A DNA stretch of 64,000 bases from Abditibacterium sp. (GTDB lineage Bacteria; Armatimonadota; Abditibacteriia; Abditibacteriales; Abditibacteriaceae), in assembly GCA_965199495.1 (NCBI GenBank), contig CBDASK010000003.1:1760001-1824000 (forward strand). The letters are read 5' to 3'. This document shows, one piece after another, positions 306-62,922 of the stretch (position 1 is the first letter of the stretch; each line of letters opens with the position of its first letter). The notes beneath the pieces were generated by a model. It was not told where the DNA came from. It was given only the letters and a program-made list of their open reading frames with translations, and did not search any database. The translations under genes and the position numbers were made by a program.

Positions 306-2443
306 AAAGTCGCGCCCACCAATTCCCACAGCAACTGTTTCTCCGACGCGGGCATTTCGCCCTCCGACGGCGCGCCCAATAATGTGCCGTCCATAATGAC
401 GGTTCCGCGTCCGAAATAACCCGCGACAACGACGGCTTTATCCGATTTCGCCTCGCGCGCCAAAACGGTCGCATCCGGCGTGGCTGCTATGATGACGTGA
501 TCGCTGTAACCCTGCGTCACCGCGCCCGGCGTCACGTTCCAATTGTTGGCACCGACGATTATATTTTTGCCGTCCAAGCGTTCGACGCCGACGCCGATTT
601 CGGGAAACAAACGCTGATGCCAACGATAACCGACGGCGTCATGCGTCAAAATCAAGCGCCCGCCGTCGCTGACATATTGGCGCAAATCACGGATAACATC
701 GGGCGTCAAATCTTGCACATCGTTCAAATGCGGCACGATCAAAACTTTGGCGTTTTTCCACATTTCGGGTTTGAGCGCGTAAATTAATTCGGCGTCCACA
801 TCGGGCGCATCTTTGAGCGCTTTCATTAAACCCGCGCTCGCCTGTCCGCCCGCATAGACAGCCACGGCGCGCTGGTCGGGCGCGAAATGCGGTGGCAGAG
901 CGCGCGCTTTTAAATCGGACATCGCGCTTTCGCTCAAACCTTCGACGAACGGGCCGCGAATGGCGATTGGCCACGTTTTGCCGTTCGCGTCGGTCGCGGT
1001 GCCACGCAAAACCAATTGCGAAACGCCTGCAGCAACCGGAAATTCGTCGAGCGGTGTCAGGAATTGCGGGGAAAATTTGCCGCGACGCGACGAAACATCG
1101 GGCAATTCAATTGAGCCGCCCAAATTTGCCGTTTTGCCGCCGTTGTCGATTTCTAAGCGTGCGCTGGCGCTTTTCCACTCGCGTTGGTCTCCGGCGAATT
1201 CAACCGATACGAACATTTTGCCCCCACTCGCGAACGCCATCGGCGCGTCTTTGCGCTCGATGCCGCCAAGAACGCTCCACTGCGCGCGCGGCGCGCGATA
1301 ACTCGGAATCGCCGAAATCGCGTTCGCGGTTTTGATCGCCGCCAAAACCGCATCTATTTTATCGTCGTTGTAAGCAAACAAAACATATCCATCGGCGCCG
1401 TTTGCCCGCGCGATTTCGATTTGCCCCGCGACATCTTTTGGGTCTTTTATCAAATAATTCCCGATGCCCGCCGCGAACGCAATATGTCCGGCGACGCCCG
1501 GAATTTGCTCTTTCATATCGCTCTCGAAGCGCGCGTTGTCGGCGCTATAATCCATCGGCACCACGAAATCGAGCCAATTTTCGCGCGCCCATCTCGTCCA
1601 ATCTTGCTTGAGGGCCGCGCGATATTTACGATTCGCCCGCCACACCGCCGCCGAAACCATCACACGCGGCTTGCTCGCTTTGGTATTGGCATAAACGCGT
1701 TTAACCACGTCGTTGATATTCTCGCGCTCCCAGTCTTCGTATTCGGCTTTCAAGTGCCCCGAAAACACGTCGGCGGGCCAATTCGCGACTTTCATTCCGC
1801 GCGCTTTCTCGAACTCGAAGCGCGAAATTGGGCCGTAATCGAAATCGTAATTTTCTTTGCCGTCGCCGCCGATTTCGGTGTAGCGAATATAATCGAAATG
1901 CACGCCGTCCACATCGTAGTTGTCCACCAATTCTTTCATCACGTCGACTTCCAATTGTCGATTGCGCGGGTCGCCCGGATTAAGCGCCGTCGTTTGCACG
2001 CCGTTCACATCGCGCATCAAGCGGTCATCGGCCTTCATTTGGGTGAACATCGCGGCTGGCCCCTTCCCCGCGCGCATTCCGGCGCTGGCGTTGAAATTGA
2101 CTTTCCACGCATGAAATTCCAGCCCATTTCGATGCGCCGCCTCAATCATCGTTTTGAGTTCGTCGGTTCCTTTGCCGTCTTTCCACGCATCGGCGGCCCA
2201 ACCGTCCATCGGCAAAATCTTGGACGGATAAAGCGCATTCACGCCGCGCGCCACGCGCACGAACACGCAATTCAAACCGGCGTCGGCGATCTTTTTCATC
2301 ACGACATCCCAAGGTTGCGGGCTGTAAGTGTGAATCCAGATGCCGCGAATTTCGGGCGTCGCGGTTTCGCCTTGGGCGTGGCTCCAGTGTGGGGCGACTC
2401 CCGACAAAACGAACAACATCAACAATAAAATGAATTTCTTCAT
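302..2443 (-). CDS. Secreted GHL10/DUF187-like glycoside hydrolase with C-terminal glutamine-amidotransferase-like domain
   Basis: Signal peptide MKKFILLLML; EIRGIW, HRNGLEFHAW, YDVDGVHFDYIRY and VVPMDY motifs; start moved from the ORF track to ATG at 2443. Confidence 0.8.
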   Translation of the reverse strand: MKKFILLLMLFVLSGVAPHWSHAQGETATPEIRGIWIHTYSPQPWDVVMKKIADAGLNCVFVRVARGVNALYPSKILPMDGWAADAWKDGKGTDELKTMIEAAHRNGLEFHAWKVNFNASAGMRAGKGPAAMFTQMKADDRLMRDVNGVQTTALNPGDPRNRQLEVDVMKELVDNYDVDGVHFDYIRYTEIGGDGKENYDFDYGPISRFEFEKARGMKVANWPADVFSGHLKAEYEDWERENINDVVKRVYANTKASKPRVMVSAAVWRANRKYRAALKQDWTRWARENWLDFVVPMDYSADNARFESDMKEQIPGVAGHIAFAAGIGNYLIKDPKDVAGQIEIARANGADGYVLFAYNDDKIDAVLAAIKTANAISAIPSYRAPRAQWSVLGGIERKDAPMAFASGGKMFVSVEFAGDQREWKSASARLEIDNGGKTANLGGSIELPDVSSRRGKFSPQFLTPLDEFPVAAGVSQLVLRGTATDANGKTWPIAIRGPFVEGLSESAMSDLKARALPPHFAPDQRAVAVYAGGQASAGLMKALKDAPDVDAELIYALKPEMWKNAKVLIVPHLNDVQDLTPDVIRDLRQYVSDGGRLILTHDAVGYRWHQRLFPEIGVGVERLDGKNIIVGANNWNVTPGAVTQGYSDHVIIAATPDATVLAREAKSDKAVVVAGYFGRGTVIMDGTLLGAPSEGEMPASEKQLLWELVGATL

Positions 2444-2478
2444 GGAATTTTCGCGGGCATCGCGCCGCGAGAACAATT

Positions 2479-3501
2479 TCAATGAGCGCGCCAAGTCCAT
2501 TTCTCGTCCGCGCTCATTGCGCGTTCGATTTGCGTTTGCGCATTGGGATGCAATCGCAAAATGCCGTCTTTTTCGCTGCGCACGCGCACTTCGACAACCG
2601 CGCCGCCTTCGACACTCGCGCCGACGATAAATGCGCCCGCGCAACCAACGCCATCGAAACTCAGTTCGCTCCATGCGGGCGCAATCGCGGGCATAACGTG
2701 AATGCCATCGCTTTGCGATTGCACTAACAATCGGGTGAACGCCGCAAGGAAATCTAAGGTTGCATCCGTCGTGGCGCTGGCCTGGGCTTGTTTGAACAAC
2801 GCGGTATTCCATTGCCTTTGCAATTCTGCATTGGGCCAACGGACGCACGGCGCCGCGCGCCAGAATTGCTTCCAGTAATAAATCGGATTGATGTCGGGTT
2901 TGCGGCGCGCCCGCGAAACGGCGGCGCGCGCGGCCTCTTCGGTTTCGCCGCGCGCCGTGGCGAGGAACAACAAACCGTCGCGCTCGCGCACCATGGTCAC
3001 CAAACTTTCGTCGGCGTCCATTTCCCAAACCAAGCCGCATCCGTCGGCGATTTGAATTTCGAGCGGCGCCGAAATTTCGCGTTGCTCCAACGTTTCGCGG
3101 TTCGCTTGCCCGTCCGAACGCAGCAGCCACGGCGCGCCGCTGGCTCCATCCACCCACGCGATTTCTTCGTCCATCGCGCACTCGATGGAAACGGCGCGCC
3201 CCTCGCTGAGCGCGATTTGCAAAATTCCGTCGGGCCCCAGCGTTGCTGTGAGCGGGCGCGCTTCCTCGGCAAAGCGCAATTCCAAAATCGAACTGCCAAT
3301 TGGAAGTTGCCCGCGCGAATCTTCGTTTTCGAGTTCGGCGTCGCCAAAACCGGCGCGCATGATGGTCACACACAAACTTTCGTCGCCCCACACCGAAATT
3401 TTGAGAGTCCCGTTGCCTAACGTGATACCGCACTGCGGGCGCGCGAGCGGAAAGTCAAAGCGAATTTCGGGCGAAAAAGGGAAATTAAACACGCGATGCA
3501 A
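2479..3501 (-). CDS. GH95/GH65-like protein retaining beta-sandwich parts, catalytic barrel apparently missing
   Basis: GITLGNG near N-terminus; C-terminal LLVQSQSDGIHVMPAIAPAW..FDGVGCAGAFIV resembles the GH95 C-terminal domain; only 340 aa. Confidence 0.5.
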   Translation of the reverse strand: MHRVFNFPFSPEIRFDFPLARPQCGITLGNGTLKISVWGDESLCVTIMRAGFGDAELENEDSRGQLPIGSSILELRFAEEARPLTATLGPDGILQIALSEGRAVSIECAMDEEIAWVDGASGAPWLLRSDGQANRETLEQREISAPLEIQIADGCGLVWEMDADESLVTMVRERDGLLFLATARGETEEAARAAVSRARRKPDINPIYYWKQFWRAAPCVRWPNAELQRQWNTALFKQAQASATTDATLDFLAAFTRLLVQSQSDGIHVMPAIAPAWSELSFDGVGCAGAFIVGASVEGGAVVEVRVRSEKDGILRLHPNAQTQIERAMSADEKWTWRAH

Positions 3502-3505
3502 CCGG

Positions 3506-5935
3506 TTAAAGCTCGATCAAATGGCCCGACGTTTTATCACCGATCAACCGTTTGAGCGCCAACTCCGCCGAAATCAATTGTATCGGCATACCGATGCCCG
3601 GATTGGTATCGCCGCCGACATAAAGCAGATTCTCGACTTTCTTCGATTGATTATTGGGCCGCAAAATCGCGGTCTGTTGAATCGTGTGAGCCAATCCCAA
3701 AGCCGTGCCACCCAACTTGTTGTAATGCGTGGTGAAATCTTTCGCCGAAAACACGCGCTTATATAAAATACGTTCGCGCAAATCGGGAATGCACATCTCT
3801 TTGGCGATAATATCTAACATTCGGTTCGATTGTTCTTCTAACTCGGCGTCGGTATAATCCATACGAGGCGGAATCGGCACCAAAACAAATAAATTCTCGT
3901 CGCCTTCTGGTGCCACGGTCGGATCGGTTTTCGAGGGCGCGCAGATATAAAGTGACGGCTCGGACGGCCACTGCGGTGTATCGAAGATTTCGCCAAAGTT
4001 CTTTTTCCAATCGGTCGAAAACAATAAATTATGATGCGTCAAAGAATCAACTTTACCTTTGACACCCAAATACATAATAAGTGCCGAAGGTGCCAACGTG
4101 CGCTTGTCCCAGTATTTGTCCGAATGATCGCGATAAGGTTTCGGCAACAGGCTTTCGGTATGGTGAACCGGCGCATTAGAAACGACGATGTCGGCTTCCA
4201 AAATTTCGCCATCTTCGAGGGTCACGCCCTTCACCTTCGGGCCGCGTTTAGTGTTGATCGTTTTAACGCCAACGCCTGTGCGATACTTGACGCCATTCTT
4301 CTCGCCTATCTGCTTTAAAGCGAGCGGAATTTGGTGAATGCCGCCCTGCGGATAAAACACGCCCATATTAAAATCAATATGCGACATGATATTATATAAA
4401 GCGGGCGTATTGTATGGTGAAGAACCTAAGAAAACTAAAGTGTATTGCATCACTTTTTGCACTTCGTCAGTGCTAAAATGTTTGGCGACGTAATCGCTCA
4501 TTTTGGCGAAAACTTCCAATTCGCGGCCTTCGGTGGCGACTTGTTTGTTCAAAAAGTCGGTGACGTTATCGTAGTTTTTATACATGAAACCGCCCAGCGC
4601 GATTTCATATTGATACTTCGATTTCTCCAGATACTCTTTCAGTTTCGGGCCGGAACCGGGTTCGAGCATCTCGAAAGTCGGCAGGTCGCGCTCTAAATCC
4701 GAGTAGAAATCCAATGAGCGGCCTTTGCCCTGAAAGAAAATGCGATAGGATGGATCGAGCTGCGTCAAGTCCAAATAATCCTCGACTTTTTCGCCCAATA
4801 ACTCGAAATAGTTTTGGAAAACATCGGGCATCAAATACCAGGATGGCCCCATATCAAAGGTGAAACCTTCGGCTTCAAACTGGTTAGCCACGCCGCCCAA
4901 TTTGTCGTTTTTTTCTAAAACGGTGACATCGTAGCCAATCTTTCCGGCCAAAGCCGCGAACGCCAAACCGCCGATGCCGCCACCAATTACAATAAGTTTC
5001 TGATTCATGTTTTGTTCCCGACGCTCGGCACTCGTCAATTGATGCCGCAAATTTCCCTGACTCAAAGCGCGCGCCGCGCGCAACAACGCGACCTTCTCCA
5101 CGCCCGACGTGGCTGCTCGATTGGTAAAAGGATCGAAATCCTGCGCTTGCAACTTATCCAAAATCGCGCGATATAACGTCGAAGCCGACGAGACCGCGAA
5201 ACGCCCTTCTTTATTCAACAACTTGATTCCTTTGTTCGCCTCGTCATACAGCTGATGCGCCCGCTCGACTTGGAACTGCATGAACTCGCGAAATGCGGGA
5301 GAAAACTTTCGCTGTGCGATGTCTTCGTCGCTCAAACCAAATTGTTTTAACTCATCTTGCGGCATATAAACGCGGCCACGCTGCTGATAATCTTCGTCTA
5401 TATCGCGCAAGAAGTTGGTGAGCTGCATGGCATTTCCCAACTGAATCGCATAACTTAAAGTTTCTGGCTCGCTAAAACCGATAATATGCGACATCATTAA
5501 ACCAACACAAGAGGCCGATCCATACATATACCGTTCCAAATCTTCATAGTCGGCATAGCGCGTTTGCTCGGTGTCTTGAATCATCGCATGGAGAAACGAT
5601 TGCGAATACTCGAACGGCACACCATATTTATGAAAAATATGCGCGGCAAAATCGAGAATCTGGTCGCCCGAATCGCCAGTTTGATAAGCGTTTTTCCACG
5701 TTTCTAAAAAGTCGAGCAATTGCCCGCGCACAGCCGCAATTTCGTCCGGTGTTTCTTGCGGCGAATTATCCACGATTTCGTCGGGCAAACGCACGAACGC
5801 ATACAGCGCGCACGTCGCTTCCTGCAATTCACGCGGAAAAAGCCGCGTCGAAAAATAGTAGCTTTTGCCGTGCTGCTTTAAAAGCGCGCGCGCGGCGCGG
5901 TAAGCGGCGGAAAAATCGCGGGGAGAATCGGACAT
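3506..5935 (-). CDS. crtB-crtI: Fused phytoene synthase (CrtB) - phytoene desaturase (CrtI)
   Basis: N-half: GKSYYFS, LYAFVRLPDEIVD, AMQLTNFLRDIDED..RGRVYMP. C-half: IVIGGGIGGL, FTFDMGPSWY, LYVGGDTNPGIGMP. No stop between the halves. Confidence 0.9.
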   Translation of the reverse strand: MSDSPRDFSAAYRAARALLKQHGKSYYFSTRLFPRELQEATCALYAFVRLPDEIVDNSPQETPDEIAAVRGQLLDFLETWKNAYQTGDSGDQILDFAAHIFHKYGVPFEYSQSFLHAMIQDTEQTRYADYEDLERYMYGSASCVGLMMSHIIGFSEPETLSYAIQLGNAMQLTNFLRDIDEDYQQRGRVYMPQDELKQFGLSDEDIAQRKFSPAFREFMQFQVERAHQLYDEANKGIKLLNKEGRFAVSSASTLYRAILDKLQAQDFDPFTNRAATSGVEKVALLRAARALSQGNLRHQLTSAERREQNMNQKLIVIGGGIGGLAFAALAGKIGYDVTVLEKNDKLGGVANQFEAEGFTFDMGPSWYLMPDVFQNYFELLGEKVEDYLDLTQLDPSYRIFFQGKGRSLDFYSDLERDLPTFEMLEPGSGPKLKEYLEKSKYQYEIALGGFMYKNYDNVTDFLNKQVATEGRELEVFAKMSDYVAKHFSTDEVQKVMQYTLVFLGSSPYNTPALYNIMSHIDFNMGVFYPQGGIHQIPLALKQIGEKNGVKYRTGVGVKTINTKRGPKVKGVTLEDGEILEADIVVSNAPVHHTESLLPKPYRDHSDKYWDKRTLAPSALIMYLGVKGKVDSLTHHNLLFSTDWKKNFGEIFDTPQWPSEPSLYICAPSKTDPTVAPEGDENLFVLVPIPPRMDYTDAELEEQSNRMLDIIAKEMCIPDLRERILYKRVFSAKDFTTHYNKLGGTALGLAHTIQQTAILRPNNQSKKVENLLYVGGDTNPGIGMPIQLISAELALKRLIGDKTSGHLIEL

Positions 5936-5980
5936 AGGAGAGCGGCGCGCGAAGTTGCAAACTCGTCGCCGCGTCACAGT

Positions 5981-10655: not shown

Positions 10656-10976
10656 TTAGCGCAACGGCTCGCCAGACTCGATCTCTTTTTGGTCGGATTC
10701 GGAACGATAGGTTTTAAGCGGCCAGTAATCGGGCAGAGCTTCGCGCAAGGCATCGCTAATCGCTAAATCCCATTGGCGCGAAAGTTCACGAAAACGCGGC
10801 GTGTCGCTGATGCCGTCTTGCAGCACGAAAGTGACGTGGACGAGCGGGTCGCCCTGCCAGCCAGTTCGTGGCTGCGATGTCCAGCGAATAATATCGTCGG
10901 GCAAATTCAAGGCAGTCAAAGTTTCGTCCACGCGGCGCCCGATTTCTTCGAGCGATAATAATTTGGTTTCGAGCAT
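10656..10976 (-). CDS. Small protein coupled to the HEPN gene, putative degenerate MNT-like antitoxin
   Basis: Ends 4 nt before the HEPN start; GDPLVHVTFVL..WPLKTYRSESD. Confidence 0.55.
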   Translation of the reverse strand: MLETKLLSLEEIGRRVDETLTALNLPDDIIRWTSQPRTGWQGDPLVHVTFVLQDGISDTPRFRELSRQWDLAISDALREALPDYWPLKTYRSESDQKEIESGEPLR

Positions 10977-11041: not shown

Positions 11042-12478
11042 TTAAGCCAACTTGCCGCTTAAATCGTATTCGTTGCAGCCGGTGATACGGACGCGAACGA
11101 ACGAGCCGGGCGGGTTTTCGCGGCGTTCGCGCGGCGACATTTTGACCCAGACGTTGCCATCCACTTCGGGCGCGTCGCGCTCGGCGCGGCCCATCGTGCC
11201 GCCGGGCTTTTCGGTTTCCAGCAAAACTTCCAAAGTCTGGCCGATGAAGCCGCGATTCTTTTGCAGCGAGACTTTCTGCTGCAATTTCTGCAACTCGTGA
11301 TAACGTTTTTCGATAACGTCTTGTGGCACTTTACAGTCGAGTCCAAACGACAGGGCGGAGTCTTCGTCGGAGAATTTGAAAACGCCGATGCGGTCGAACT
11401 TTTGCGCTTTAACGAACGCGCAGAGTTCGGCGAAATGTTCGTCGGTTTCGCCGGGAAAGCCGACGATGAACGATGTGCGAATGCCAATGCCGGGCGCTTG
11501 TTCGCGGAATTTATCCAGTAATTTCGCATACGATTCGGCATTGCCGCCGCGCCGCATCCGTTTCAACACGCCCTGCGCGGCGTGTTGAAGCGGAATATCC
11601 AAGTAGCGCGCGATGCGCGGCGCCGTGCATAAGGCTTCGATAAATTCGTCGTTGACCTGCGACGGATACGCATACAAAACGCGAATCCACTTCAGTTCTT
11701 CGACCTGCGACAAGGCTTGCAGCAAATCGCCCAGCGCCATTTTGCCGTAGCGGTCGAAGCCGTAGCGCGTCGAATCTTGCGCGACCAAGACGACTTCGCG
11801 CACGCCCGACGCGGCCAATTGGCGCGCCTCGGTCACGATGGATTCGATGGGCCGCGAACGAAACGGCCCGCGCAGTTGCGGAATAATACAAAACGAACAC
11901 GAATGATCGCAGCCCTCGGCGATTTTGATATAGGCGCTCCACGGCGGCGTGGCTCGCACGCGCGGGGTGGCGTGATCGTAAACGTAAGTATGCGCCGCCG
12001 TCGGCGTTACGTTAAGTTGAATCAAACCTCCATTGTCAATGCCGCTCGGCGCCACGAACGCGCCTTTGATTTTGGGTTTGAGCGCCGCATCAACGGCGCC
12101 GACGATGGCGCCGAAATCGGAGCTACCCAGAATCGCGTCAACGCCGGGCGCGCGGTCTTTGATGATTTGCGCGTCGCGTTGCGGCAAACAACCTGTCGCC
12201 ACAACCGCGCGGCATTTGCCCGACGTTTTGTGCGCGGCCATATCGTTGAGCGTTTGCAAACTCTCTTCGACCGCCGCGCCCAAAAAGCCGCAGGTATTGA
12301 CGATAATCGCGTCGGCATCAGCCACGTCGCCAGTGATGCGGTAGCCCGCGCCCTGCAATAAGCCGAGCATAACTTCGCTGTCAACCAAATTTTTCGAGCA
12401 ACCCAGCGAAACTAAGCCGACGGATTTTGCTTCTATATGTGCGCTCGCGGGGAGCGCTTCCAATTCTAATACGGACAT
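11042..12478 (-). CDS. rimO: Ribosomal protein S12 methylthiotransferase
   Basis: SLGCSKNLVDSE, NTCGF, AEGCDHSCSFCIIP, DAPEVDG, TRAM C-terminus. Confidence 0.95.
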   Translation of the reverse strand: MSVLELEALPASAHIEAKSVGLVSLGCSKNLVDSEVMLGLLQGAGYRITGDVADADAIIVNTCGFLGAAVEESLQTLNDMAAHKTSGKCRAVVATGCLPQRDAQIIKDRAPGVDAILGSSDFGAIVGAVDAALKPKIKGAFVAPSGIDNGGLIQLNVTPTAAHTYVYDHATPRVRATPPWSAYIKIAEGCDHSCSFCIIPQLRGPFRSRPIESIVTEARQLAASGVREVVLVAQDSTRYGFDRYGKMALGDLLQALSQVEELKWIRVLYAYPSQVNDEFIEALCTAPRIARYLDIPLQHAAQGVLKRMRRGGNAESYAKLLDKFREQAPGIGIRTSFIVGFPGETDEHFAELCAFVKAQKFDRIGVFKFSDEDSALSFGLDCKVPQDVIEKRYHELQKLQQKVSLQKNRGFIGQTLEVLLETEKPGGTMGRAERDAPEVDGNVWVKMSPRERRENPPGSFVRVRITGCNEYDLSGKLA

Positions 12479-16842: not shown

Positions 16843-17028
16843 CCCGCCAAGGCACAATATCAAATCGCCGAGTTGTGGCGCCAGGAGTATCAGCCGCCGT
16901 AAGCAGCCACGCCGACCCCAATTGACCAAGAACCGTTTATCGAAATGTGGAGCGACCGCAAAAATTCATTCGACAGCTCACAAGCCATTCGCAATATGCG
17001 CAAATCCAAATGGGGCGAAAAGTCGTAA
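16843..17028 (+). pseudogene. Decayed DUF2281-like antitoxin, paralogue of 20388..20630
   Basis: PAKAQYQIAELWRQEYQPP*AATPTPIDQEPFIEMWSDRKNSFDSSQAIRNMRKSKWGE; internal stop, no start. Confidence 0.75.
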
Positions 17029-20387: not shown

Positions 20388-20630
20388 ATGACCCCCCAAC
20401 TTATCAACGAAATCAATGCGTTGCCCGCCGAAGCACAACGTCAACTCGCCGACTTCGCCGAATTTTTGCGCCAAAAGTATCGCAACGCTCCGACATCACA
20501 ACCGACCAAAGCCACCGAGTTCGACAAAGAGCCGTTCATCGGAATGTGGAGTGACCGCGAAGACGTGGCTGATAGTTCGCAAGTGGTGCGCGAACTCCGC
20601 AAATCTGAATGGGGCGAAATGTTGTCTTGA
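20388..20630 (+). CDS. DUF2281-like antitoxin (orphan)
   Basis: LPAEAQRQLADFAEFLRQKY..EPFIGMWSDRED; aaaggag RBS. Confidence 0.75.
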   Translation: MTPQLINEINALPAEAQRQLADFAEFLRQKYRNAPTSQPTKATEFDKEPFIGMWSDREDVADSSQVVRELRKSEWGEMLS

Positions 20631-36582: not shown

Positions 36583-36834
36583 TCATTCCGTTTTGCGGGC
36601 GCGACGCAAATTGTCCAACGTTTTGCGCGTGCCGGGATTGGCTCGATTTTCTTCGCGCGCGCGATTCGCAGCAGCCACGTCGCGTTCGTCCTCCAACTCT
36701 TCGCGTTCTTCATCTCTCAGAGTGGAAACCGCCAAACGCCGCGCGATTTCGGCTTCGACCGAAACGCCGCGCTCGGCGGCTTGCTCGCGCGGGCGCGCTT
36801 CGAGTTGCGGTTCGATTTCGATGGTGAGTGACAT
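36583..36834 (-). CDS. Putative antitoxin-like small protein
   Basis: MSLTIEIEPQLEAR..QAAERGVSVE pattern with acidic middle. Confidence 0.55.
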   Translation of the reverse strand: MSLTIEIEPQLEARPREQAAERGVSVEAEIARRLAVSTLRDEEREELEDERDVAAANRAREENRANPGTRKTLDNLRRARKTE

Positions 36835-47711: not shown

Positions 47712-48486
47712 CGCGTTGACGCGCCAGAATCACCCATTTCTCGTCGGCTTCGATTCCGATAAAGCGTCGTTTCAACTTTTGCGCCGCAACCAAACTCGAA
47801 CCCGAACCGCAAAATGGATCGAGAACTACGTCATCAACGCGCGACGAAGACGCGATAATCCGCTCCAAAACCGCCAAAGGTTTTTGCGTCGGATGCCCAA
47901 CTTTTTCTTTTGACGAACCTTTAAGCGACGGCACGCGCCACAAATTGGTGGCAAACTTACCTTTTTCGAGATATTCGCGCCGCTTTTCTTTATCCAAATA
48001 ACGCCGATCGCGCAGATACCGCGCGCGCGTGGTTGCATCGTAAGGCTCGCGCACCGCGTCTTTATCGAAACGCGGCGGCGCGCCGGATTGCTTCAAAACT
48101 AAAATTTGCTCGTAAGCCGGAGAAAACGAATCGCGCCTGTCATAACCGACGGCGCGATCCCAAACAATCAAATCGTGAAACTCGAACTCGGCAGTTGCCC
48201 GCGACATCAAATGCAACCAAACGTGTTCGCGTCTGCCAACTTGCCCGAAGATGTAGCACAATCCGCCCGGCACCAAAGTCCGCATCGCCAGACGCAGCCA
48301 CGTCGCCGACCAATCGAGATAAGCCGCTTCGTCAGGCCATTGGTTGTCCCAACTTTCCTTCAAAACGCGAAAATAAGGCGGATCGGCGACGATCAATCCA
48401 ACCGACGCGGATGGCAAATTCGGCAAAACGTCGAGACAATCGCCGTGATGAATGATATTAATTGTCTTCGTCCAAAAGCGCCGCAA
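47692..48486 (-). CDS. Orphan N4/N6 DNA methyltransferase (beta class)
   Basis: GDCL, ADPPY, HPTQKP, VLDPFCGSGS; start uncertain (TTG inside parE). Confidence 0.85.
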   Translation of the reverse strand: MRRFWTKTINIIHHGDCLDVLPNLPSASVGLIVADPPYFRVLKESWDNQWPDEAAYLDWSATWLRLAMRTLVPGGLCYIFGQVGRREHVWLHLMSRATAEFEFHDLIVWDRAVGYDRRDSFSPAYEQILVLKQSGAPPRFDKDAVREPYDATTRARYLRDRRYLDKEKRREYLEKGKFATNLWRVPSLKGSSKEKVGHPTQKPLAVLERIIASSSRVDDVVLDPFCGSGSSLVAAQKLKRRFIGIEADEKWVILARQRVNSLGE

Positions 48487-49057: not shown

Positions 49058-50596
49058 TTACGAATTATCGAGATCGATGTCAATCTTTGTTATGGCCAAA
49101 TTCGCAAAATACCGATTGATAAGTTGCAAAATTTTGCTTTCTTCGTCATTTATTGAACCATCCATCTGCGCAATATTGCGCGCTTGAACCGCGACGTATT
49201 CGACGAACTCACCGTCGAGTTGCGGCAACAATTCTTCCAAAGATTTCGGCGACTCCAAACCGCTCTCGATTGTTTCAATCGAAGCGTCGCTAAAATCCAT
49301 TTCGCGCAGTGCGGCCAATAATTTCGCTTTATCGGTTGCAGGCCGACCCGCCAAAACGACGTGCAACAAAACCTGATCGGCGATTTGTTTCTGTGTTGCC
49401 GAGCTTTCGAGATAAAGTTCCGTGTCTCGCTTAACGAATTTCATCGCTTCGTCAGTGGCACCGACGTTCAAGCGTTTTTCATAGAAGCTGCACGCTGCGT
49501 TGCCCAGCGCATAAATAATGGCGGCGTTGGCCGTGGCTCCTATCGCCGCGCCCATCAATGGCACGTTGCGCAAAACGCCCAATCCGATTTTCTCGACCGG
49601 AACTTTGGTGACGGCGTTCAAACCTTTGGCCGCCAATTCCGAATTGCGAAACAGTTCCAGTCCGGCTTTGCCCGCTTTGTTGCCGCCCAGAACGCAACCG
49701 AAAACCGCCAACATTTCGCCTTTGCGCGCGGGATCGTCCAAATCCAAACCATAAACCGCCGCGATTTGCAACACGAGTTCAGCCTGCAACAGCGAAGTCG
49801 CCGCCACATCGAGCGCGAGCATCGGAATGGCGAGACCGGGCAAACTCGTCGAAAGCCCGACGCCGCCCGCATAAAGCGCCTTTTGCGTAATCAAACGCCG
49901 CGCGATTTGCCGATTCGATTCAGCGGGAAACTCGTTTTTAAGATTCGCCACAACCCGCGCGGCTTTTTCGAGATCGACGTGGCTGCTGATGTCGAGCCAC
50001 TGCTCCAAATTAAACGCCTTCGCCACGCGCCGCAACGGCGAATGATTGGTAATTGACTCGGTAATATTTCCTGCTCGCTCGGTCAACCCGACCAGCAGCG
50101 GCATCGCGCGTTCATCGACAGTTTCGCGCGTTTTGGCGCCGACGCTGCCCGCGATTTCGCCGACCGCGCCATAAGCATTGACGGCTGTATCGGCGACAAA
50201 ATGCCCCGAAGTCGCCGCCGCTCCGCCAATCGCCGACGCCAAATCGCCCGCCTTATCTTTCGCCGCGCCAGCAGCAGCCACGGCGCCGCTGGGCACGCGT
50301 TGCAACCAACTTAATTCGGCTTCATCGTCGCGCACGATGTGCGCAAGCGGCAACGGCGCCAAAGAATAAGTCGTGCCGTTATCTAAACTTTCTTCGATCT
50401 CTTTCGCCGAAGCCGTCTGCAAAAACTGCTGCACCGCCGTTTGCAATTCCGCCCGCGCTTCGACTTCGCCCTCGGCGCGCACGGAAATATCGAGTTCAGG
50501 GCAAGTCGCTTCCCAAAACGTTCTGCGCCATTTCGTGCCGCGATGAACAAGCGCCGTCAGAGCCAGAGAATCGAGGGGAACAATCGCGTCATCCAT
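49058..50596 (-). CDS. HicB-like / EcsC-like / TerB-like multidomain protein
   Basis: N-terminal EATCPELDI..EARAELQTAV; central IAAVYGLD..RKGEML, VPLMGAAIGATAN; C-terminal IAQMDGSINDEESKIL. Confidence 0.7.
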   Translation of the reverse strand: MDDAIVPLDSLALTALVHRGTKWRRTFWEATCPELDISVRAEGEVEARAELQTAVQQFLQTASAKEIEESLDNGTTYSLAPLPLAHIVRDDEAELSWLQRVPSGAVAAAGAAKDKAGDLASAIGGAAATSGHFVADTAVNAYGAVGEIAGSVGAKTRETVDERAMPLLVGLTERAGNITESITNHSPLRRVAKAFNLEQWLDISSHVDLEKAARVVANLKNEFPAESNRQIARRLITQKALYAGGVGLSTSLPGLAIPMLALDVAATSLLQAELVLQIAAVYGLDLDDPARKGEMLAVFGCVLGGNKAGKAGLELFRNSELAAKGLNAVTKVPVEKIGLGVLRNVPLMGAAIGATANAAIIYALGNAACSFYEKRLNVGATDEAMKFVKRDTELYLESSATQKQIADQVLLHVVLAGRPATDKAKLLAALREMDFSDASIETIESGLESPKSLEELLPQLDGEFVEYVAVQARNIAQMDGSINDEESKILQLINRYFANLAITKIDIDLDNS

Positions 50597-52227: not shown

Positions 52228-55444
<3,217 letters not shown>

Positions 55445-56339: not shown

Positions 56340-57095
56340 ATGATCAAAACTCTCCCTCTGTTGGCGCTCACTCTATTTGCATCAACTCCCCTACTGGCGC
56401 AAACCGTCGAGACACCCGCAGAAAAACCCGCGAAAAAGCCCGCCGCTAAGAAAACTGCCGCCGCGAAAAAGACGACGACCGTCGCCGGTATCGCCCACGT
56501 CCGCTTTTTGCACGCTGCGCCCGGTGCTGGAGCTGTTGACATTTATGCGCGCGGCGACGAAAAAATCAAAACCGGCATGACTTACAAGGAACTGACGAAT
56601 TATACAGAAGTCAAATCCGGCAAGATGCCGCTCAAAATTACAGCCACCGGCAAAACCGACGCGCTGATTAGCGGCGCCGTGACTTTAACCAAAGACAAAT
56701 GGTATACGGTCGCGGCTTATATGGACGGCGCGACGCCCGCCGTTATCGGCATCAACGAATCGAGCGGCGTCGAAATGCCCGACAAAGCGCGCGTTCGCGT
56801 AGTGAATTTGGTGTCCGGCTCCGACGGCGTGGCTGTGACCAAGCCCTCGAAACGTGCCGCCGATGGCAGCGCCAATTTCATTGCTAAACCGGTGTTATTT
56901 GGCAAATCGTCGTCGAAGACGCTCAAACCCGCGACCGAGACGATTCAATTCCGCGATTCGGCGGGCAAAATGCTGAAGGAAATGCCCGATATGAAGCTCG
57001 ATGCAAATATGCGTTACACGGTGTTCATCATCGGCAAAGCCGGAGGAACCGGCGGCGATGCGGTTGATGTAATCGTCAAAGACGCCGCGAAGTAA
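56340..57095 (+). CDS. DUF4397 domain secreted protein
   Basis: Signal peptide; AHVRFLHAAPGAGAVDIY and ARVRVVNL repeats. Confidence 0.85.
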   Translation: MIKTLPLLALTLFASTPLLAQTVETPAEKPAKKPAAKKTAAAKKTTTVAGIAHVRFLHAAPGAGAVDIYARGDEKIKTGMTYKELTNYTEVKSGKMPLKITATGKTDALISGAVTLTKDKWYTVAAYMDGATPAVIGINESSGVEMPDKARVRVVNLVSGSDGVAVTKPSKRAADGSANFIAKPVLFGKSSSKTLKPATETIQFRDSAGKMLKEMPDMKLDANMRYTVFIIGKAGGTGGDAVDVIVKDAAK

Positions 57096-57228: not shown

Positions 57229-58509
57229 ATGCAAAGAGTCGAAGGCACATCAGCCACGCGCGCGGCCATCCAAACCGCCAACGCCGCGCGCGCGTTCACG
57301 GCGTCGCCGCAAATCGAAGCCGCCGTGCGCCAAATTTGCGACGACGTTCGCGCACGCGGCGACGACGCCGTCATCGAAAACTGCCGTCAATTCGATTGCC
57401 CCGATTTACAAATCGAAAATTTGCGCGTCACCGAAGCCGAAATCGAAGCCGCTTGGAACGCGCTGCCCAACAACGCACAAAACGCTTTACAGCGCGCGGC
57501 CAAAAATCTCGAAGCGTTTCACCGCGCGCAAAAGCCGCAGGATTTCACTTTCGATTCACCCGATGGCGCGCGTTTGGGCAATCGTTGGACGCCGATTGTG
57601 CGCGCCGGAATTTACGCGCCCAACGGTCGCGCGGCTTATCCATCAACCGTTTTAATGTTAGCGATACCAGCGCGCGTGGCTGGTGTGAAGGACCTTGTTC
57701 TCGCTACGCCCGCCGGAAAAGATGGCAACGCGCACCCCGTAATATTAGCCGCCGCTTATGTCGCCGGAATTTCGGAAATCTACAAAGTTGGCGCCGCCGC
57801 CGCGATGGCGGCTTTGGCCTACGGCACCGACATAATCCCGCGCGTGGACAAACTCGTCGGCCCCGGCTCGATTTGGATGACGCTGGCGAAAAAACACCTG
57901 TTTGGCGTCGTCGGCATTGACGGTTTATACGGCCCCTCCGAAGTCGCCATTGTCGCCAACAAAGGCGCCGATGCCGCGCAAATTGCCGCCGATTTGCTGG
58001 CGCAGGCCGAACATGGCGCCGATAGTTTCGTGGCGTTTCTGACGCCTTCTCACGATTTAATTAACCAAGTCGAAAGCGAAATAGAAGCGCAATCACAAAG
58101 TTCGCCGCGCGCGAAATTGGCGCGCGCGGCGCTGGAAAACTCGCTTCTGTGCCGCGTCGAAAGCATGGAAGCGGCGTGCGAGTTGTGCGATTTAATCGCC
58201 GCCGAACACGTCGAAATTTGGAGCGACGACGCGCCCAAATGGGCCGCTCAAATTCCCAACGCGGGCGCGATTTTCCTCAATTGTCCGGTTCCCTTGGGCG
58301 ACTATATCATCGGTCCGTCGCACACGTTGCCAACGGGAGCCACGGCGCGCTTCGCGTCGGGCGTGGGCGTTGATACGTTTCTCAAGCGCACTTCGATAAT
58401 TGAAGCGCCCAAAGCGAGCATCGCGCAGTTGGCCGACGATTTGGAAACGATTGCGTTATTGGAAGAGTTGCCGGGACACGCGGCGGCGGTGAAGCGCGCG
58501 GCGAATTAG
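57229..58509 (+). CDS. hisD: Histidinol dehydrogenase
   Basis: AAYPSTVLM, DKLVGPG, GPSEV, DLLAQAEH, AAEH, GDY..GPSHTLPT. Confidence 0.95.
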   Translation: MQRVEGTSATRAAIQTANAARAFTASPQIEAAVRQICDDVRARGDDAVIENCRQFDCPDLQIENLRVTEAEIEAAWNALPNNAQNALQRAAKNLEAFHRAQKPQDFTFDSPDGARLGNRWTPIVRAGIYAPNGRAAYPSTVLMLAIPARVAGVKDLVLATPAGKDGNAHPVILAAAYVAGISEIYKVGAAAAMAALAYGTDIIPRVDKLVGPGSIWMTLAKKHLFGVVGIDGLYGPSEVAIVANKGADAAQIAADLLAQAEHGADSFVAFLTPSHDLINQVESEIEAQSQSSPRAKLARAALENSLLCRVESMEAACELCDLIAAEHVEIWSDDAPKWAAQIPNAGAIFLNCPVPLGDYIIGPSHTLPTGATARFASGVGVDTFLKRTSIIEAPKASIAQLADDLETIALLEELPGHAAAVKRAAN

Positions 58510-58961
58510 CGCACCGTCGGATGAAGTTCGGCCTGTTTCTGTTGCCAATCTTGCGCGTGCCATACGATGAGTTCGTCTTTGTCCATTTTGCCGGCGATAT
58601 CCGAACTTTTCAACTCCAGCATAAATGATTTATTACCAACCGAAAAATCGGTCGGATCGAGCAATCCTGTTCCCATTGTCCAGATAATTTTCTGCGTTAC
58701 GCCATTCGCGGTTACGACGAAATTTTCGTAAACGAAACCGTTGGGATAATTTTTGACTTTAACGTGCGTTTGCCCCCCGAATTTCAAACTAAAATCAGCG
58801 AACTGAAGCGCCTGACCTTTGGCAAAGCGCACTTTTTGCCCGTAAGGTTGAACCGCATTTTTGGAGCTTGGATTTGAAGAAGGCATAACCGTTTTTGATT
58901 GCGAACACGAGACACCCCAAATCGGCGCGCTGACAAACAGCAGCCACGTCGCGCGTTTCAA
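58506..58961 (-). CDS. Hypothetical lipoprotein
   Basis: GVSC lipobox-like; overlaps the stop of the upstream gene. Confidence 0.65.
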   Translation of the reverse strand: MKRATWLLFVSAPIWGVSCSQSKTVMPSSNPSSKNAVQPYGQKVRFAKGQALQFADFSLKFGGQTHVKVKNYPNGFVYENFVVTANGVTQKIIWTMGTGLLDPTDFSVGNKSFMLELKSSDIAGKMDKDELIVWHAQDWQQKQAELHPTVR

Positions 58962-60088: not shown

Positions 60089-61525
60089 ATGCCCGCTTCA
60101 CCCCTCGTTTCGCCGCCCGCCCGCAAATACAAAAATCAAGTCGAAGAACAAGAACTCGTGCGCATCGAACGCGACAACAAACGCCGCGCCGCCGGATTGG
60201 GCGACATTATGCGTCAAGGCGTCGAAATTAGCGAAATCGAACCCGATTCCATCGCCGAAGAGTTGGGATTGCAACCCGGCGACCGACTTCTGGAAATTGA
60301 CGGCGAACGCGCGCGCGATATTATTCAACTCAAGAAAGCCGATCTGGGCGAAATTATCAATTTGACGGTTTTAACCGGCGACGAAATTGCGCAGTTCGAC
60401 ATCGAAAAAGATGTGATCGAAAGCATCGGAATCGGCGTGGACAGCGAATTATTCGACGGCGTGACGCGTTGCCAGAACAAATGTCCGTTTTGCTTTGTGG
60501 ATCAATTGCCGCCGCGCGTCAAAGGCGGCGACAATTTGCGCCGCACGCTTTATGTGCGCGACGACGATTATCGTTTGTCGTTTCTGCACGGCCATTACAT
60601 TACGCTGACGAACCTCAAGGCGCACGATTACGAGCGCATTATCGAAGAGAAATTGACGCCGCTTTGTGTTTCGGTTCATGCGACCGACCCAGCCACGCGC
60701 ATCAAGATGGTCGGCAACAAAAGCGGCGGCGATATTTTAGAGAAGCTGAAATATCTCAACGACAACGGCATTCGCGTCAACGCGCAAATCGTGCTGTGTC
60801 CCGGCTGGAACGACGGCGAAATTCTGCGCCAATCGGTCGAAGATTTAATGGCGCTTTATCCCAATGTCGAATCAATGGCGGTCGTGCCCGCCGGTTTGAC
60901 CAAATTTATGCCGACCGACCGAGGCATGAATTTGGTCAAACCCGAAGAAGCGCAGCAATGCTTGGAACAGCTCGAACCGTTTCAGAAAATGGCGCGCAAA
61001 AAGTGGGGCGTTCGTTTTGTTTACGCCTCGGACGAAATGTATTTGCTGGCCGGGCAGGAAGTTCCCCATGCCGCTTTTTACGACGGTTTTCCGCAATACG
61101 CCAATGGCGTTGGCATGATTCGTTCGTTTTTGGACGACGTGAAAAAAGTGAAACGCCGCAAAAATAAAGTCGGGCGCGCGCCCAAAATCACGATGGCGAC
61201 GGGAAGTTTGGCGGCTCCGGCGTTGCGCGAACTCGCTCAGGTTTTGCGCGAGAAAAATTTGGCCGACGCGCACGTTTTGGAAATCCATAATACCTACTGG
61301 GGCGGCAACGTGGCCTGCGCCGGTCTGATTATGGGACAGGAATTGGTCGCGCAAAGCAAAGGTTTGAATTTGGGCGAGATGTTGTTTTTGCCGCCCGACG
61401 CCGTTGACGGCAAACGCCGAATGTTGGACGATATTACGCTCGATACGTTGAGCGGGCGTTTGAATACGATGGTGCGCTCAGATGCCAATGGGCCGTTGGA
61501 TTTGGCGGATATTTTGAGCGTTTAA
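60089..61525 (+). CDS. DUF512 PDZ/radical-SAM-like protein
   Basis: SIAEELGLQPGD, CQNKCPFCFVDQLP, DDDYRLSFL, QYANGVG. Confidence 0.9.
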   Translation: MPASPLVSPPARKYKNQVEEQELVRIERDNKRRAAGLGDIMRQGVEISEIEPDSIAEELGLQPGDRLLEIDGERARDIIQLKKADLGEIINLTVLTGDEIAQFDIEKDVIESIGIGVDSELFDGVTRCQNKCPFCFVDQLPPRVKGGDNLRRTLYVRDDDYRLSFLHGHYITLTNLKAHDYERIIEEKLTPLCVSVHATDPATRIKMVGNKSGGDILEKLKYLNDNGIRVNAQIVLCPGWNDGEILRQSVEDLMALYPNVESMAVVPAGLTKFMPTDRGMNLVKPEEAQQCLEQLEPFQKMARKKWGVRFVYASDEMYLLAGQEVPHAAFYDGFPQYANGVGMIRSFLDDVKKVKRRKNKVGRAPKITMATGSLAAPALRELAQVLREKNLADAHVLEIHNTYWGGNVACAGLIMGQELVAQSKGLNLGEMLFLPPDAVDGKRRMLDDITLDTLSGRLNTMVRSDANGPLDLADILSV

Positions 61526-61657
61526 TTTCACACAAAGAACACGAAGATCACACAAAGGGCACAAAGAGAATTAAATTCAACTTTTCTATTTTACAAATCA
61601 GTTGCTTTATTTTCTTTGTGTTCCCTTGTGCGATTTTTGTGTTCTTTGTGTGAAATT
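61524..61657. repeat. Long inverted repeat with internal CACAAAG units between convergent genes
   Basis: aatttcacacaaagaacacgaagatcacacaaagggcacaaaga ... tctttgtgttcccttgtgcgatttttgtgttctttgtgtgaaatt. Confidence 0.8.
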
Positions 61658-62922
61658 TATTTCCTTACCAGCCGCGCCATATAAAACCCGTCAAAACCGG
61701 TTTGCGCCGCCGAAATCACGCGTTCCTTGCGCAAGTTCCATTCGGGAAATTCGCCAACAAACCACGCGATTTGTTCTTGATTCTCGCTCGGCAAAATCGA
61801 ACACGTCGCATAAATAATTTCGCCGTCGGGCGCGACTAAATCGCGATAACTCGTCAAAATTTCGCGTTGCGTGGCGCGCAATCGCTCCAACCAATCGGGC
61901 GATAATCGCCATTTCAAATCGGGTTGACGACGCAAAGTTCCCGTTCCCGAACACGGCATATCGAGAACTAAAAGGTCGGCCCAACCGCGCAATTGTTGCA
62001 AAGATTTCTCGTTCGCCAGCGCAACTTGCACCTTCGCTCCGGCGCGCGCCGCGCGGCGTGACAATTCGTCCAGCTTCGATGCAGCCACGTCGAGCGCGCG
62101 CAGTTCGCCTTCGTTGTTCATTTGCGCCGCCAGATGTAACGTTTTTCCGCCCGCTCCGGCGCACGCGTCCAAAACTTTCAGGCCCGACGTGGCTGCTGCG
62201 AACGGCGCGACCATTTGCGACGCGGCATCTTGAATCTCGAATAATCCCGCTTTGTAGAGTTCAGTTCGCGTCACGGCTTTGCGCTCGACCAATTGCAACG
62301 CGTCGGGCAAATATGGGCGGACGGGGCTGGCGCCCTCTTCCAATCGGGATTCCGCCTCCGCACCAAGATTGGAAGCGGGCGCAAGCCCCGCTCCTCTATC
62401 TTCAACTAAAACAGTCTCGAAGCCCAATTCGTTTAACTGCGCGCGCAATTCGTCGCGCGCAATTTTTAGCGTGTTGGCGCGCAAAACAACGGGCGCCGTC
62501 TGATTTAACGCCGCGACTTCGGCGCCCCAACGTTCGCCTAATTCGCGCGCGCCCAATTCATCGAGCCAATCGGGAATGGATTGCGCAATCGCTCGTTCGA
62601 TTTCGGGAATTTGCAAACGCGTGCGCATCCACGCGGCGTTGGTATTTTTAAATTCGTCCCAAGCGGGCAATTCTTGATTTGTGCGCGCCAATTGCGCGGA
62701 TAACAGCGCCCAATTATTTTCGTCTTGCGCGGCGAATTCGAGCAAGCGGCGCCAACGCACAATTTCATAAACCGTTTCGGCGACAAACGAACGGTCGCGT
62801 TTGCCCCACTTTGGGTGCGCCTCGAACGATGCAGCCACGGCGCGCTCGGCGACGGCGTTGTTGTCGAAAATTTCGGATAATGTGGCGACGATGGCTTCGG
62901 CCAAATTGCGATGCAGTTTCAC
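61657..62922 (-). CDS. RsmB/NOP family RNA m5C methyltransferase
   Basis: EIQDAASQ, DACAGAGGKT, DMPCSGTG, YATCSI, DGFYMA. Confidence 0.93.
   Translation of the reverse strand: MKLHRNLAEAIVATLSEIFDNNAVAERAVAASFEAHPKWGKRDRSFVAETVYEIVRWRRLLEFAAQDENNWALLSAQLARTNQELPAWDEFKNTNAAWMRTRLQIPEIERAIAQSIPDWLDELGARELGERWGAEVAALNQTAPVVLRANTLKIARDELRAQLNELGFETVLVEDRGAGLAPASNLGAEAESRLEEGASPVRPYLPDALQLVERKAVTRTELYKAGLFEIQDAASQMVAPFAAATSGLKVLDACAGAGGKTLHLAAQMNNEGELRALDVAASKLDELSRRAARAGAKVQVALANEKSLQQLRGWADLLVLDMPCSGTGTLRRQPDLKWRLSPDWLERLRATQREILTSYRDLVAPDGEIIYATCSILPSENQEQIAWFVGEFPEWNLRKERVISAAQTGFDGFYMARLVRK
62312..62400. repeat. REP-like palindrome inside the RsmB-like CDS
   Basis: cggggctggcgccctcttccaatc ... 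gattggaagcgggcgcaagccccg; encodes DRGAGLAPASNLGAEAESRLEEGASPVRPY. Confidence 0.8.

Follow-up and report, generated by a model that had tools for sequence, protein, structure and literature searches.

Introduction

Hyper-abundant words that mark a cell's own DNA have been described for few groups, and both their origin and their function are debated. They include the DNA uptake sequences (DUS) of Neisseriaceae, whose dialects were reportedly described by Frye et al. in 2013, the uptake signal sequences (USS) of Pasteurellaceae, Chi, and the highly iterated palindrome HIP1 (GCGATCGC) of cyanobacteria. Repetitive extragenic palindromes (REP) and their hairpin-forming pairs (REPIN) are extragenic palindromic units spread as copies by a REP-associated tyrosine (RAYT, Y1) transposase. 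According to the available text of PMC1939737, uptake sequences work independently of orientation, about 10% of them lie in inverted repeats, and their one-off forms number 947 against 86 expected; Chi is found 1,008 times against 151 expected, and HIP1 has 5,648 perfect copies with 1,830 one-off forms against 160 expected. In the available parts of PMC5861425, HIP1 is enriched 15- to 300-fold, uses non-preferred codons and is conserved more than control octamers. Here we report on a 9-mer, GCAGCCACG, and its core 8-mer, CAGCCACG, in a 64-kb stretch of Abditibacterium DNA (G000:C3:1760001-1824000, called the window below) and in the three-contig, 4.81-Mb genome to which it belongs (G000). The evidence strongly supports the conclusion that this word is a lineage-specific, protein-read mark of self-DNA. 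We favour a predicted function, with a probability of about 0.35, in which the reader acts inside the cell and strand by strand, by a logic like that of Chi.

The word resembles DUS and USS in being short and non-palindromic, in its thousands of copies, equal on the two strands and without replichore skew, in lying inside genes against codon preference, in being sparse on foreign DNA and restricted to a clade, and in having a flank dialect, some inverted pairs and a spacing more even than random. Unlike them, it comes from another phylum (the relatives of G000 bear the labels Abditibacteriaceae and Armatimonadota) with no ComP homologue, its one-off forms are not enriched, the exclusion between neighbouring copies concerns the same orientation only, and in G000 it is denser in coding than in non-coding DNA. 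With Chi it shares an asymmetric core of 8 nucleotides, a similar density (one per 1.5-2.7 kb), orientation dependence and species specificity; it would also tell own from foreign linear DNA, and its helicase-nuclease reader is only proposed. Unlike Chi, which is read by RecBCD or AddAB, the word is far more strongly enriched, overrides codon usage and shows a same-orientation exclusion that E. coli Chi lacks, and the enzyme proposed to read it is Dna2-like, consists of a single chain and belongs to no curated family. HIP1 is palindromic and thus without orientation. The available parts of PMC5861425 show it to be like the word in hyper-abundance, non-preferred codons, extra conservation, non-random spacing and a sharp ratio of perfect to one-off copies, but with a periodicity of tens of kb instead of an exclusion of about 1 kb, and with a phylum-wide distribution instead of a young sub-genus clade. 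REP and REPIN resemble two sets of elements in relatives of G000, namely the hairpin pairs of G004 (the reverse complement of which begins GTAGG...) and a 24-bp palindrome of G017, which are mostly intergenic and number hundreds to thousands. In contrast, the word of G000 and of its closest relative, G011, is a single non-palindromic genic unit that arose by substitution, and G017 has no Y1 match.

Results

The window contains 29 exact copies of the 9-mer, 16 on the plus and 13 on the minus strand, and 41 copies of the core (Table 1). Dinucleotide-preserving shuffles of the window gave 0.78 copies of the 9-mer (sd 0.94, largest 5), and none of 100 shuffles reached 29. An earlier note, made from the sequence of the window alone, had listed 27 copies as a minimum, with less than one expected by chance, and about ten additional matches to the 8-mer only. 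All 27 coordinates were confirmed, two copies had been overlooked (21307, plus strand, and 49978, minus strand), and 12 matches to the 8-mer alone were counted beyond the 29. The note had also stated that many copies extend to ATGCAGCCACG. AT precedes 8 of the 29 window copies; the commoner 5' flank genome-wide is A-G, with A at 0.49 and T at 0.21 in position -2.

In the whole genome GCAGCCACG is present in 1,783 copies, 919 and 864 per strand. The 4.72-Mb chromosome carries 917 and 863 of them, a 24.7-kb contig one and a 64.6-kb contig two. The 9-mer differs from its own reverse complement. There are 3,083 core copies on the chromosome (0.65/kb), and the logo reads a-G-C-AGCCAC-G-n-C-G with C 0.82 at +9 and G 0.75 at +10. 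The enrichment survives an order-3 Markov null, with ratios of 13 for the 8-mer and 23 for the 9-mer; AGCAGCCACGGCG was observed 349 times against 0.6 expected, and the 13-mer is enriched about 600-fold. The most over-represented 8-mers of G000 all derive from the word. Its core is sharp, as substitutions within AGCCAC are at background level (0.2-1.5 times expectation) and variants of the flanks keep a 2- to 13-fold excess. One-off forms of the 8-mer have a density of 1.18/kb in G000 versus 0.99-1.12/kb in four word-free congeners; the range over the word-rich congeners is 1.05-1.18/kb. In a full-text literature search for the word strings, no description of the word was found among the matches listed, as judged by title.

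Genes were taken from a self-trained caller of open reading frames (ORFs; 3,488 genes, 83% of the chromosome), which is crude, misses foreign-looking genes and leaves starts untrimmed. The called genes hold 1,611 of the 1,780 chromosomal 9-mers and 2,802 of the 3,083 core copies (91%). Sense copies read as GCA-GCC-ACG (A-A-T) number 560, antisense copies read as GTG-GCT-GCx (V-A-A) number 668, and 383 lie in the other four frames. Thus all six frames and non-coding DNA hold the word, with 76% of the genic 9-mers in the two Ala-rich frames. The observation of the earlier note that several frames and uncommon alanine codons are used agrees with these counts: the window has 9 sense A-A-T copies, 12 antisense V-A-A copies, 6 in other frames and 2 outside called genes, and GCA and GCT make up 6% and 10% of Ala codons. 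Shuffling of synonymous codons within genes (20 shuffles) left 45 sense and 54 antisense copies, compared to 780 and 833 observed; shuffling of codon order left 20 and 37. AAT tripeptides are spelt GCAGCCACG in 561 of 1,399 cases (12.1 expected) and VAA tripeptides are encoded by GTGGCTGCT in 401 of 1,776 cases (6.4 expected). The word overrides codon usage about 46-fold. The peptides AAT and VAA are themselves about twice as common as TAA and AAV (1,399 vs. 763 and 1,786 vs. 827), indicating that protein sequences have been changed too. The word is a DNA-level signal and not a by-product of coding.

The word is not oriented by replication on the chromosome. The dnaA gene maps to 2.03 Mb, where a very weak GC skew has its minimum, and the G-rich form of the core is on the leading strand in 1,584 of 3,083 copies (51.4%, p = 0.13), whereas 83 of 116 E. 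coli Chi sites (72%) share one orientation (450-kb sample, 83 forward and 33 reverse). Without replichore skew there is no skew of the Chi type or of the type of FtsK-orienting polar sequences (KOPS). The earlier note had used lack of skew to set Chi aside. This holds for Chi proper; it does not reach a Chi-like, strand-specific reading by another end-processing enzyme. Copies do not cluster in any macrodomain, the density is uniform along the chromosome, and the numbers of copies in 10-kb bins vary slightly less than under a Poisson distribution (variance-to-mean ratio 0.86). A replichore or macrodomain signal, of the KOPS type or that of architecture-imparting sequences (AIMS), is ruled out by the lack of skew and the uniform density.

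As the earlier note had anticipated, the word is found within core genes and is depleted on foreign DNA. The core density on the two small contigs is 0.08 and 0.09/kb, about 7-fold below the chromosome. Within genes it is 0.62-0.79/kb in every quintile of codon score, against 0.35/kb outside called genes. The largest word-free gaps cluster at 1.12-1.26 Mb, in low-GC stretches, and at a CRISPR array. The 9-mer is absent, as had also been stated, from the NACHT ORF, the TerB_N ORF and the 23S and 5S genes of the window; the NACHT ORF has a single core-only copy (27221-27228). Both ORFs, one encoding a 1,383-aa NACHT-domain protein (24229-28380, +) and the other a TerB_N-like protein (50890-51960, -), have lower GC and escape the codon-trained gene caller. 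Their low GC and their lack of the 9-mer are consistent with recent acquisition. The CRISPR-like array (G000:C3:2766475-2775000) consists of 131 copies of a repeat ending in CAAGACCCGATTAAAAC, about 65 bp apart; its position is that of one of the longest gaps without the word.

Copies in the same orientation were found to exclude each other at short range. Below 400 bp, same-orientation pairs reach 0.1-0.3 of the expected number. This ratio is about 0.45 for distances of 400-600 bp, rises to about 0.8 for those up to 1.25 kb and equals 1.0 past 1.5 kb. For opposite orientations the ratio is about 1.0 at all distances, except for a 2.3- to 3-fold excess below 25 bp. These close opposite pairs are small and hairpin-forming, lie mostly inside genes and give 4% of the core copies an inverted partner less than 25 bp away. 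Over 25-600 bp the word has ratios of 0.31 (same) and 0.96 (opposite), compared with 1.14-2.43 and 0.84-1.24 for all 25 control 8-mers of similar abundance, which show mild clustering. The exclusion also holds for pairs in different genes, and G011 follows the same rule (12 same-orientation pairs vs. 37.5 expected; 43 opposite pairs vs. 35.6 expected). Because only the same orientation is excluded, the reader of the word appears to distinguish orientation, with one copy per strand serving about 1 kb. The available text of PMC1939737 and PMC5861425 holds no comparable strand-wise spacing rule.

The word is restricted to one clade. Relatives with 79-80% identity in elongation factor G are labelled Abditibacterium, those with 69-74% Abditibacteriaceae and those with 63-65% Armatimonadota. 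Among 41 genomes the 9-mer is enriched in three of one genus (G000, 1,783 copies; G011, 1,411; G004, 972), and in the remaining genomes, 10 congeners and 28 from other genera, the counts match a reversed-word control. The lineage specificity suggested before is therefore finer than the genus, with 3 of 13 congeners carrying the word. For detailed comparisons relatives were sampled at 180-400 kb each. Samples of four word-free congeners, 400 kb each for G006 and G012 and 180 kb each for G009 and G010, showed no hyper-abundant word peculiar to them; the remaining six were counted for the Abditibacterium word alone.

The closest kin of G000 are G011 and G004, with 84.9% and 80.5% DNA identity (about 240 kb aligned). 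G000 and G011 have a common logo. The core density is lowest in G011, 0.54/kb as compared to 0.65-0.67/kb in G000 and G004 (0.67/kb in G004). G004 uses a dialect with the same core and different flanks, cgAcAC-CAGCCACG-TCCta. Copies of this new type make up 43% in G004 and copies of the G000 type 13%, and the remainder are hybrids. Many new-type copies are in inverted pairs 25-50 bp apart (42 vs. 2.2 expected) or in short tandem arrays, and 72 of 115 are outside called genes; in contrast, 30 of 36 copies of the G000 type lie within genes. Of the word sites of G000, 65.7% are conserved in G011, compared with 36.5% for all 8-mers, and only 27.1% in G004, compared with 28.3%. The differences between orthologues at word sites are point substitutions and not insertions; 58 sites are found only in G000 and 31 only in G011. 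At G004:C8:1736070-1747717, fusA-like DNA matches several nearby places with 93% and 85-86% identity, a sign that copies, duplicated or fragmentary, may lie close to the orthologous locus.

A search for competence genes, which the earlier note had linked to the word, was positive without being informative. G000 encodes ComEC (862 aa), ComEA (HHH_3) and 8 secretin matches. ComEC, ComEA and secretins are present in all five genomes searched (G000, G004, G011 and the word-free G006 and G012) and thus do not discriminate; secretin matches number 6-8 in the three carriers and equally in the two word-free genomes. ComP_DUS (PF16732) had no match above the cut-off in any of the five (best E = 1.0). 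The N6/N4 DNA methylase of the window (47692-48486) was considered as a driver and rejected, as its distribution does not track the word: five word-free congeners have orthologues of 56-70% identity, and word-rich G004 has no close one. Y1 transposase (Y1_Tnp) genes are present in G000, G004 and G011. G000 also has a separate REPIN-like family, GTAGAGACACCGA, with 153 copies mostly in inverted pairs 80-110 bp apart. One pair (38075/38172, spanning 38075-38184) and one single copy (57110-57122) lie in the window, and the segment has matches at many sites of G004 and G011, on either strand.

Genes for the processing of DNA ends do track the word. Ten of the 13 congeners, precisely those without the word, have an AddB-like gene next to a UvrD-type AddA; in G000, G004 and G011 none was found with the congener AddB-like query or with PF12705. 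RecC (PF04257) was not found in any of five genomes. Conversely, a Dna2-like protein of 1,421 aa (G000:C3:4111365-4115630, -) is present, among the 13 congeners, only in G000, G004 and G011. It has a PD-(D/E)XK iron-sulfur (Fe-S) nuclease of the Cas4/AddB type with conserved cysteines, and a helicase of superfamily 1B (SF1B), the best sequence matches of which among solved structures are DNA2 chains (E 3e-26). The middle part is predicted, from a model with a pLDDT of 85.2, to have a DEDD/RNase-H-type exonuclease fold; VIA-align matched the model to exonuclease folds (Z 11.9-8) and partially to Dna2, and Foldseek against the PDB gave no match at E <= 0.001 for this region. No RecC- or AddB-like scanning domain was among the structural matches listed, which does not exclude one. 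The protein matches no curated family above the cut-off. Its nearest relatives outside the clade, with about 40% identity, are labelled Chloroflexota, and a scan of metagenomes gave relatives at two loci at least; raw word counts in 20-kb pieces are undiscriminating. A type IB topoisomerase gene (G000:C3:4115908-4117038; L195:10908-12038, -) lies directly upstream of the enzyme gene. The two adjoin in G000 and G011 and are not adjacent in G004, G017 and G047.

G017 is the only one of six genomes of another genus with the Dna2-like enzyme. It contains, in 3.6 Mb, 2,981 copies of an unrelated 10-mer, GTACGGTCGA, which has 0-11 copies in the other 26 genomes of the family. This second word occurs mostly as the 24-bp palindrome AGTACGGTCGAATTCGACCGTACT, which contains GAATTC, TCGA and GTAC sites. 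It is strongly evenly spaced and 72% non-coding (270 of 374 copies in the sample C14:400001-800000). No Y1_Tnp match was found in G017, which speaks against a RAYT link for its word. Phages carrying the Abditibacterium word were also sought in viral contigs (14-mer; 80 of at least 120 matching loci). One locus, L268, was dense. A single 5-kb stretch of it has 12 core copies, of which 10 share one orientation, and it shows no similarity to G000; this is not the same phenomenon.

Discussion

The earlier note had suggested a lineage-specific self-DNA uptake signal or a dispersed protein-binding site. The general part of this idea is strongly supported by our results; uptake in particular agrees poorly with four of them, given below. 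We postulate that a protein would read the logo in one orientation, either on one strand or while moving one way. The word would have been written into the chromosome through point substitutions and then favoured. A machine acting on the ends or single strands of DNA, from a broken chromosome or from incoming linear DNA, would change its behaviour at a word on the strand that it tracks. DNA with the word every 1-3 kb per strand would then be spared or recombined, and word-free DNA would not. Less than about 1 kb from one copy, another on that strand would add nothing, and its redundancy would explain the strand-wise spacing. If word-bearing alleles were recombined preferentially, the process would drive itself, and an enrichment this strong would be accounted for. 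The orientation-dependent spacing and the pattern of AddB-like and Dna2-like genes fit such a Chi-like reading inside the cell.

The clade-specific Dna2-like enzyme, judged by its Fe-S nuclease, exonuclease-fold domain and SF1B helicase, is our candidate for a reader that would act on single strands. In G011 the enzyme gene is cut to residues 680-1421 and frameshifted, and we count in favour of the enzyme that this break goes with the lowest core density and with 31 unique sites versus 58 in G000. Even so, we consider it unlikely that this particular protein reads the word. The wider proposal is doubtful to the same degree: that a single-chain Dna2-like enzyme, patchily acquired, forces or drives its host to hold a word once per 1-3 kb per strand and spares DNA so marked, as a Chi-like self-recognition system. 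If true, such a system would have its first examples in two Abditibacteriaceae lineages that are independent of each other and have unrelated words, and the readers of some 'uptake-like' words in other organisms may be intracellular instead of lying at the surface.

Several results weigh against a Chi-like reader or against the Dna2-like enzyme in this role. The word has no replication-oriented skew, and its enrichment (13- to 23-fold, about 600-fold for the 13-mer, with a codon override of about 46-fold) is far above that of E. coli Chi. RecC was not found in the five genomes, nor an AddB-like gene in the three carriers. A 450-kb sample of E. coli showed no same-orientation exclusion of Chi (16 pairs vs. 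10.6 expected at 25-600 bp), thus the exclusion is a theoretical expectation for a saturated directional signal and not a documented trait of Chi. The first exonuclease motif of the enzyme is YLDAGLD and not DxE, which is non-canonical. In G011, where the enzyme is not intact, the word and its spacing persist. The enzyme family is patchy, as defence genes are (16 of 301 genomes in a sample of the phylum), and G047 has two copies of it and no comparable word in 400 kb. The palindromic, non-coding word of G017 may be a different kind of element. The link between enzyme and word rests on two lineages with one evolutionary event each, and many other genes must share the pattern.

A classical uptake signal is nearly as likely as the intracellular reader that we favour, and we regard it as a possible explanation. 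A type IV pilus or competence receptor would prefer the word, and biased uptake followed by homologous recombination would fill the genome by molecular drive. Such a signal would account for a hyper-abundant, non-palindromic word that is equal on both strands, lacks replichore skew, is spread slightly more evenly than Poisson over the chromosome, enters genes, overrides codon use and alters peptides, and is sparse on extrachromosomal and low-GC DNA. The young clade and the flank dialect agree with it, as do ComEC, ComEA and the 8 secretin matches; the inverted hairpin pairs in the intergenic DNA of G004 are as in uptake sequences, and the size of the enrichment is nearer to uptake sequences than to Chi, by the figures in the available text of PMC1939737. 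However, the exclusion is orientation-specific, and a neighbouring copy should be redundant, whichever way it points, for a receptor that binds double-stranded DNA. The one-off forms are hardly above those of word-free kin, and the competence genes tested do not set the carriers apart from word-free G006 and G012, which have them equally. ComP_DUS gave no match, although this does not exclude an unrelated receptor.

The sharp profile with few degenerate copies is what the available part of PMC1939737 gives for HIP1, and the range of enrichment and the conservation beyond codon constraint match HIP1 in that of PMC5861425. The word could thus be kept by selection or by a ratchet of repair or methylation for a role at the level of the chromosome, such as structure, repair or methylation-directed mismatch correction, with no recognition of ends or of uptake. 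The G017 word, a long, evenly spaced palindrome, would suit this idea. It is nevertheless improbable for the Abditibacterium word, which is non-palindromic and has a strand-specific spacing, neither of which is predicted by a symmetric binding or methylation site. The methylase of the window does not track the word, and since HIP1 has no established function, the comparison explains little. A by-product of a common peptide, of codon or dinucleotide bias, or of small mobile elements (REP/REPIN or miniature inverted-repeat transposable elements) could draw on the excess in two Ala-rich frames, on the mostly non-coding hairpin, palindrome and tandem forms of G004 and G017, and on the Y1 transposase genes and the REPIN-like family GTAGAGACACCGA. 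For G000 it is refuted by the codon shuffles (20-54 copies vs. 780-833 observed, with rare Ala codons used), by the Markov ratios and by the substitution pattern between orthologues. The use of six frames and non-coding DNA, the genic position of 91% of the core copies, the equal one-off density of word-free congeners and the lack of a Y1 match in G017 speak against it as well. We consider it highly improbable overall, with a place at most in the hairpin sub-families of G004 and G017.

A little-studied phylum here offers a young clade with a word, a dialect of it and ten word-free congeners for comparison. The strand-wise spacing rule constrains the mechanism, and the candidate reader, whose presence tracks two unrelated words, is testable. 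Whether the word is read at the surface or inside the cell thereby becomes directly testable by experiment.

Features of the window

Table 1. Copies of the 9-mer GCAGCCACG and additional copies of the core CAGCCACG in the window. Gene coordinates are followed by the strand.
Feature	Position	Strand	Context
9-mer	479..487	-	Context TAGCAGCCACGCCG; outside called genes; within ORF 302-3433(-), GHL10 domain
9-mer	3123..3131	+	Antisense, frame P-W-L-L, gene 2479-3501(-)
9-mer	5108..5116	-	Sense A-A-T-S, gene 3506-5977(-), phytoene/squalene synthase-oxidase fusion
9-mer	10867..10875	-	Outside called genes
9-mer	13935..13943	-	Antisense R-V-A-A, gene 13273-15417(+)
9-mer	15367..15375	+	Sense A-A-T-P, gene 13273-15417(+)
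9-mer	16903..16911	+	Antisense, frame R-G-C-L, gene 16198-16929(-), Ham1
9-mer	17959..17967	+	Antisense D-V-A-A, gene 17217-18257(-)
9-mer	21307..21315	+	Sense, frame G-S-H-A, pyruvate dehydrogenase (PDH) E1 gene 21240-24140(+); missed in the earlier note
9-mer	21410..21418	-	Antisense R-V-A-A, PDH E1 gene 21240-24140(+)
9-mer	23493..23501	+	Sense A-A-T-S, PDH E1 gene 21240-24140(+)
9-mer	29174..29182	-	Antisense G-V-A-A, gene 28443-29855(+)
9-mer	29724..29732	+	Sense A-A-T-A, gene 28443-29855(+)
9-mer	32201..32209	+	Sense A-A-T-P, gene 31733-32401(+)
9-mer	32876..32884	-	Antisense S-V-A-A, TerC gene 32451-33263(+)
9-mer	34774..34782	+	Antisense D-V-A-A, fusA 33327-35450(-)
9-mer	35253..35261	-	Sense A-A-T-A, fusA 33327-35450(-)
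9-mer	36671..36679	+	Antisense D-V-A-A, small gene 36583-36834(-)
9-mer	39410..39418	-	Antisense A-V-A-A, MFS gene 38175-39554(+)
9-mer	42882..42890	-	Sense A-A-T-A, gene 41178-43277(-)
9-mer	44027..44035	-	Antisense G-V-A-A, VIT/VWA gene 43344-45944(+)
9-mer	46359..46367	+	Sense A-A-T-A, gene 46161-47711(+)
9-mer	48294..48302	+	Antisense, frame T-W-L-R, N6/N4 DNA methylase gene 47692-48486(-)
9-mer	49978..49986	-	Sense, frame S-S-H-V, gene 49058-50596(-); missed in the earlier note
9-mer	50274..50282	+	Antisense A-V-A-A, gene 49058-50596(-)
9-mer	58940..58948	+	Antisense, frame T-W-L-L, gene 58506-58961(-)
9-mer	62081..62089	+	Antisense D-V-A-A, RsmB/F-type gene 61657-62922(-)
9-mer	62188..62196	-	Sense A-A-T-S, RsmB/F-type gene 61657-62922(-); 107 bp from the 62081 copy, opposite orientation
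9-mer	62831..62839	+	Antisense A-V-A-A, RsmB/F-type gene 61657-62922(-)
Core only	859..866	+	Context ACAGCCACGGCG
Core only	12319..12326	+	
Core only	20564..20571	-	
Core only	27221..27228	+	Sole copy within NACHT ORF 24229-28380(+)
Core only	32059..32066	-	
Core only	38353..38360	-	
Core only	39812..39819	-	
Core only	45083..45090	-	
Core only	56828..56835	-	
Core only	57251..57258	+	
Core only	57675..57682	-	
Core only	60690..60697	+	

Some further repeats were seen along the way. A second dispersed element of about 80 bp, at about 46021-46102 of the window, has many matches on both strands in G004 and G011. In control fusA loci of Actinomycetota, the 9-mers CGACGGTGC (L071) and GCGGCATAC (L059) were prominent by raw count. 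Their counts of 52 and 30 sum both strands, so that 22.7 kb would hold about 26 and 15 sites. Tandem repeats are one possible cause and additional abundant words another.

The rRNA genes of the window, on the minus strand, are a 23S gene (52228-55442) and a 5S gene (52014-52130) without an adjoining 16S gene. A DUF4397 protein is encoded by the next upstream gene (56298-57095). With 3,215 nt the 23S match is longer than its model of 2,925 positions, so the gene probably holds an insertion.

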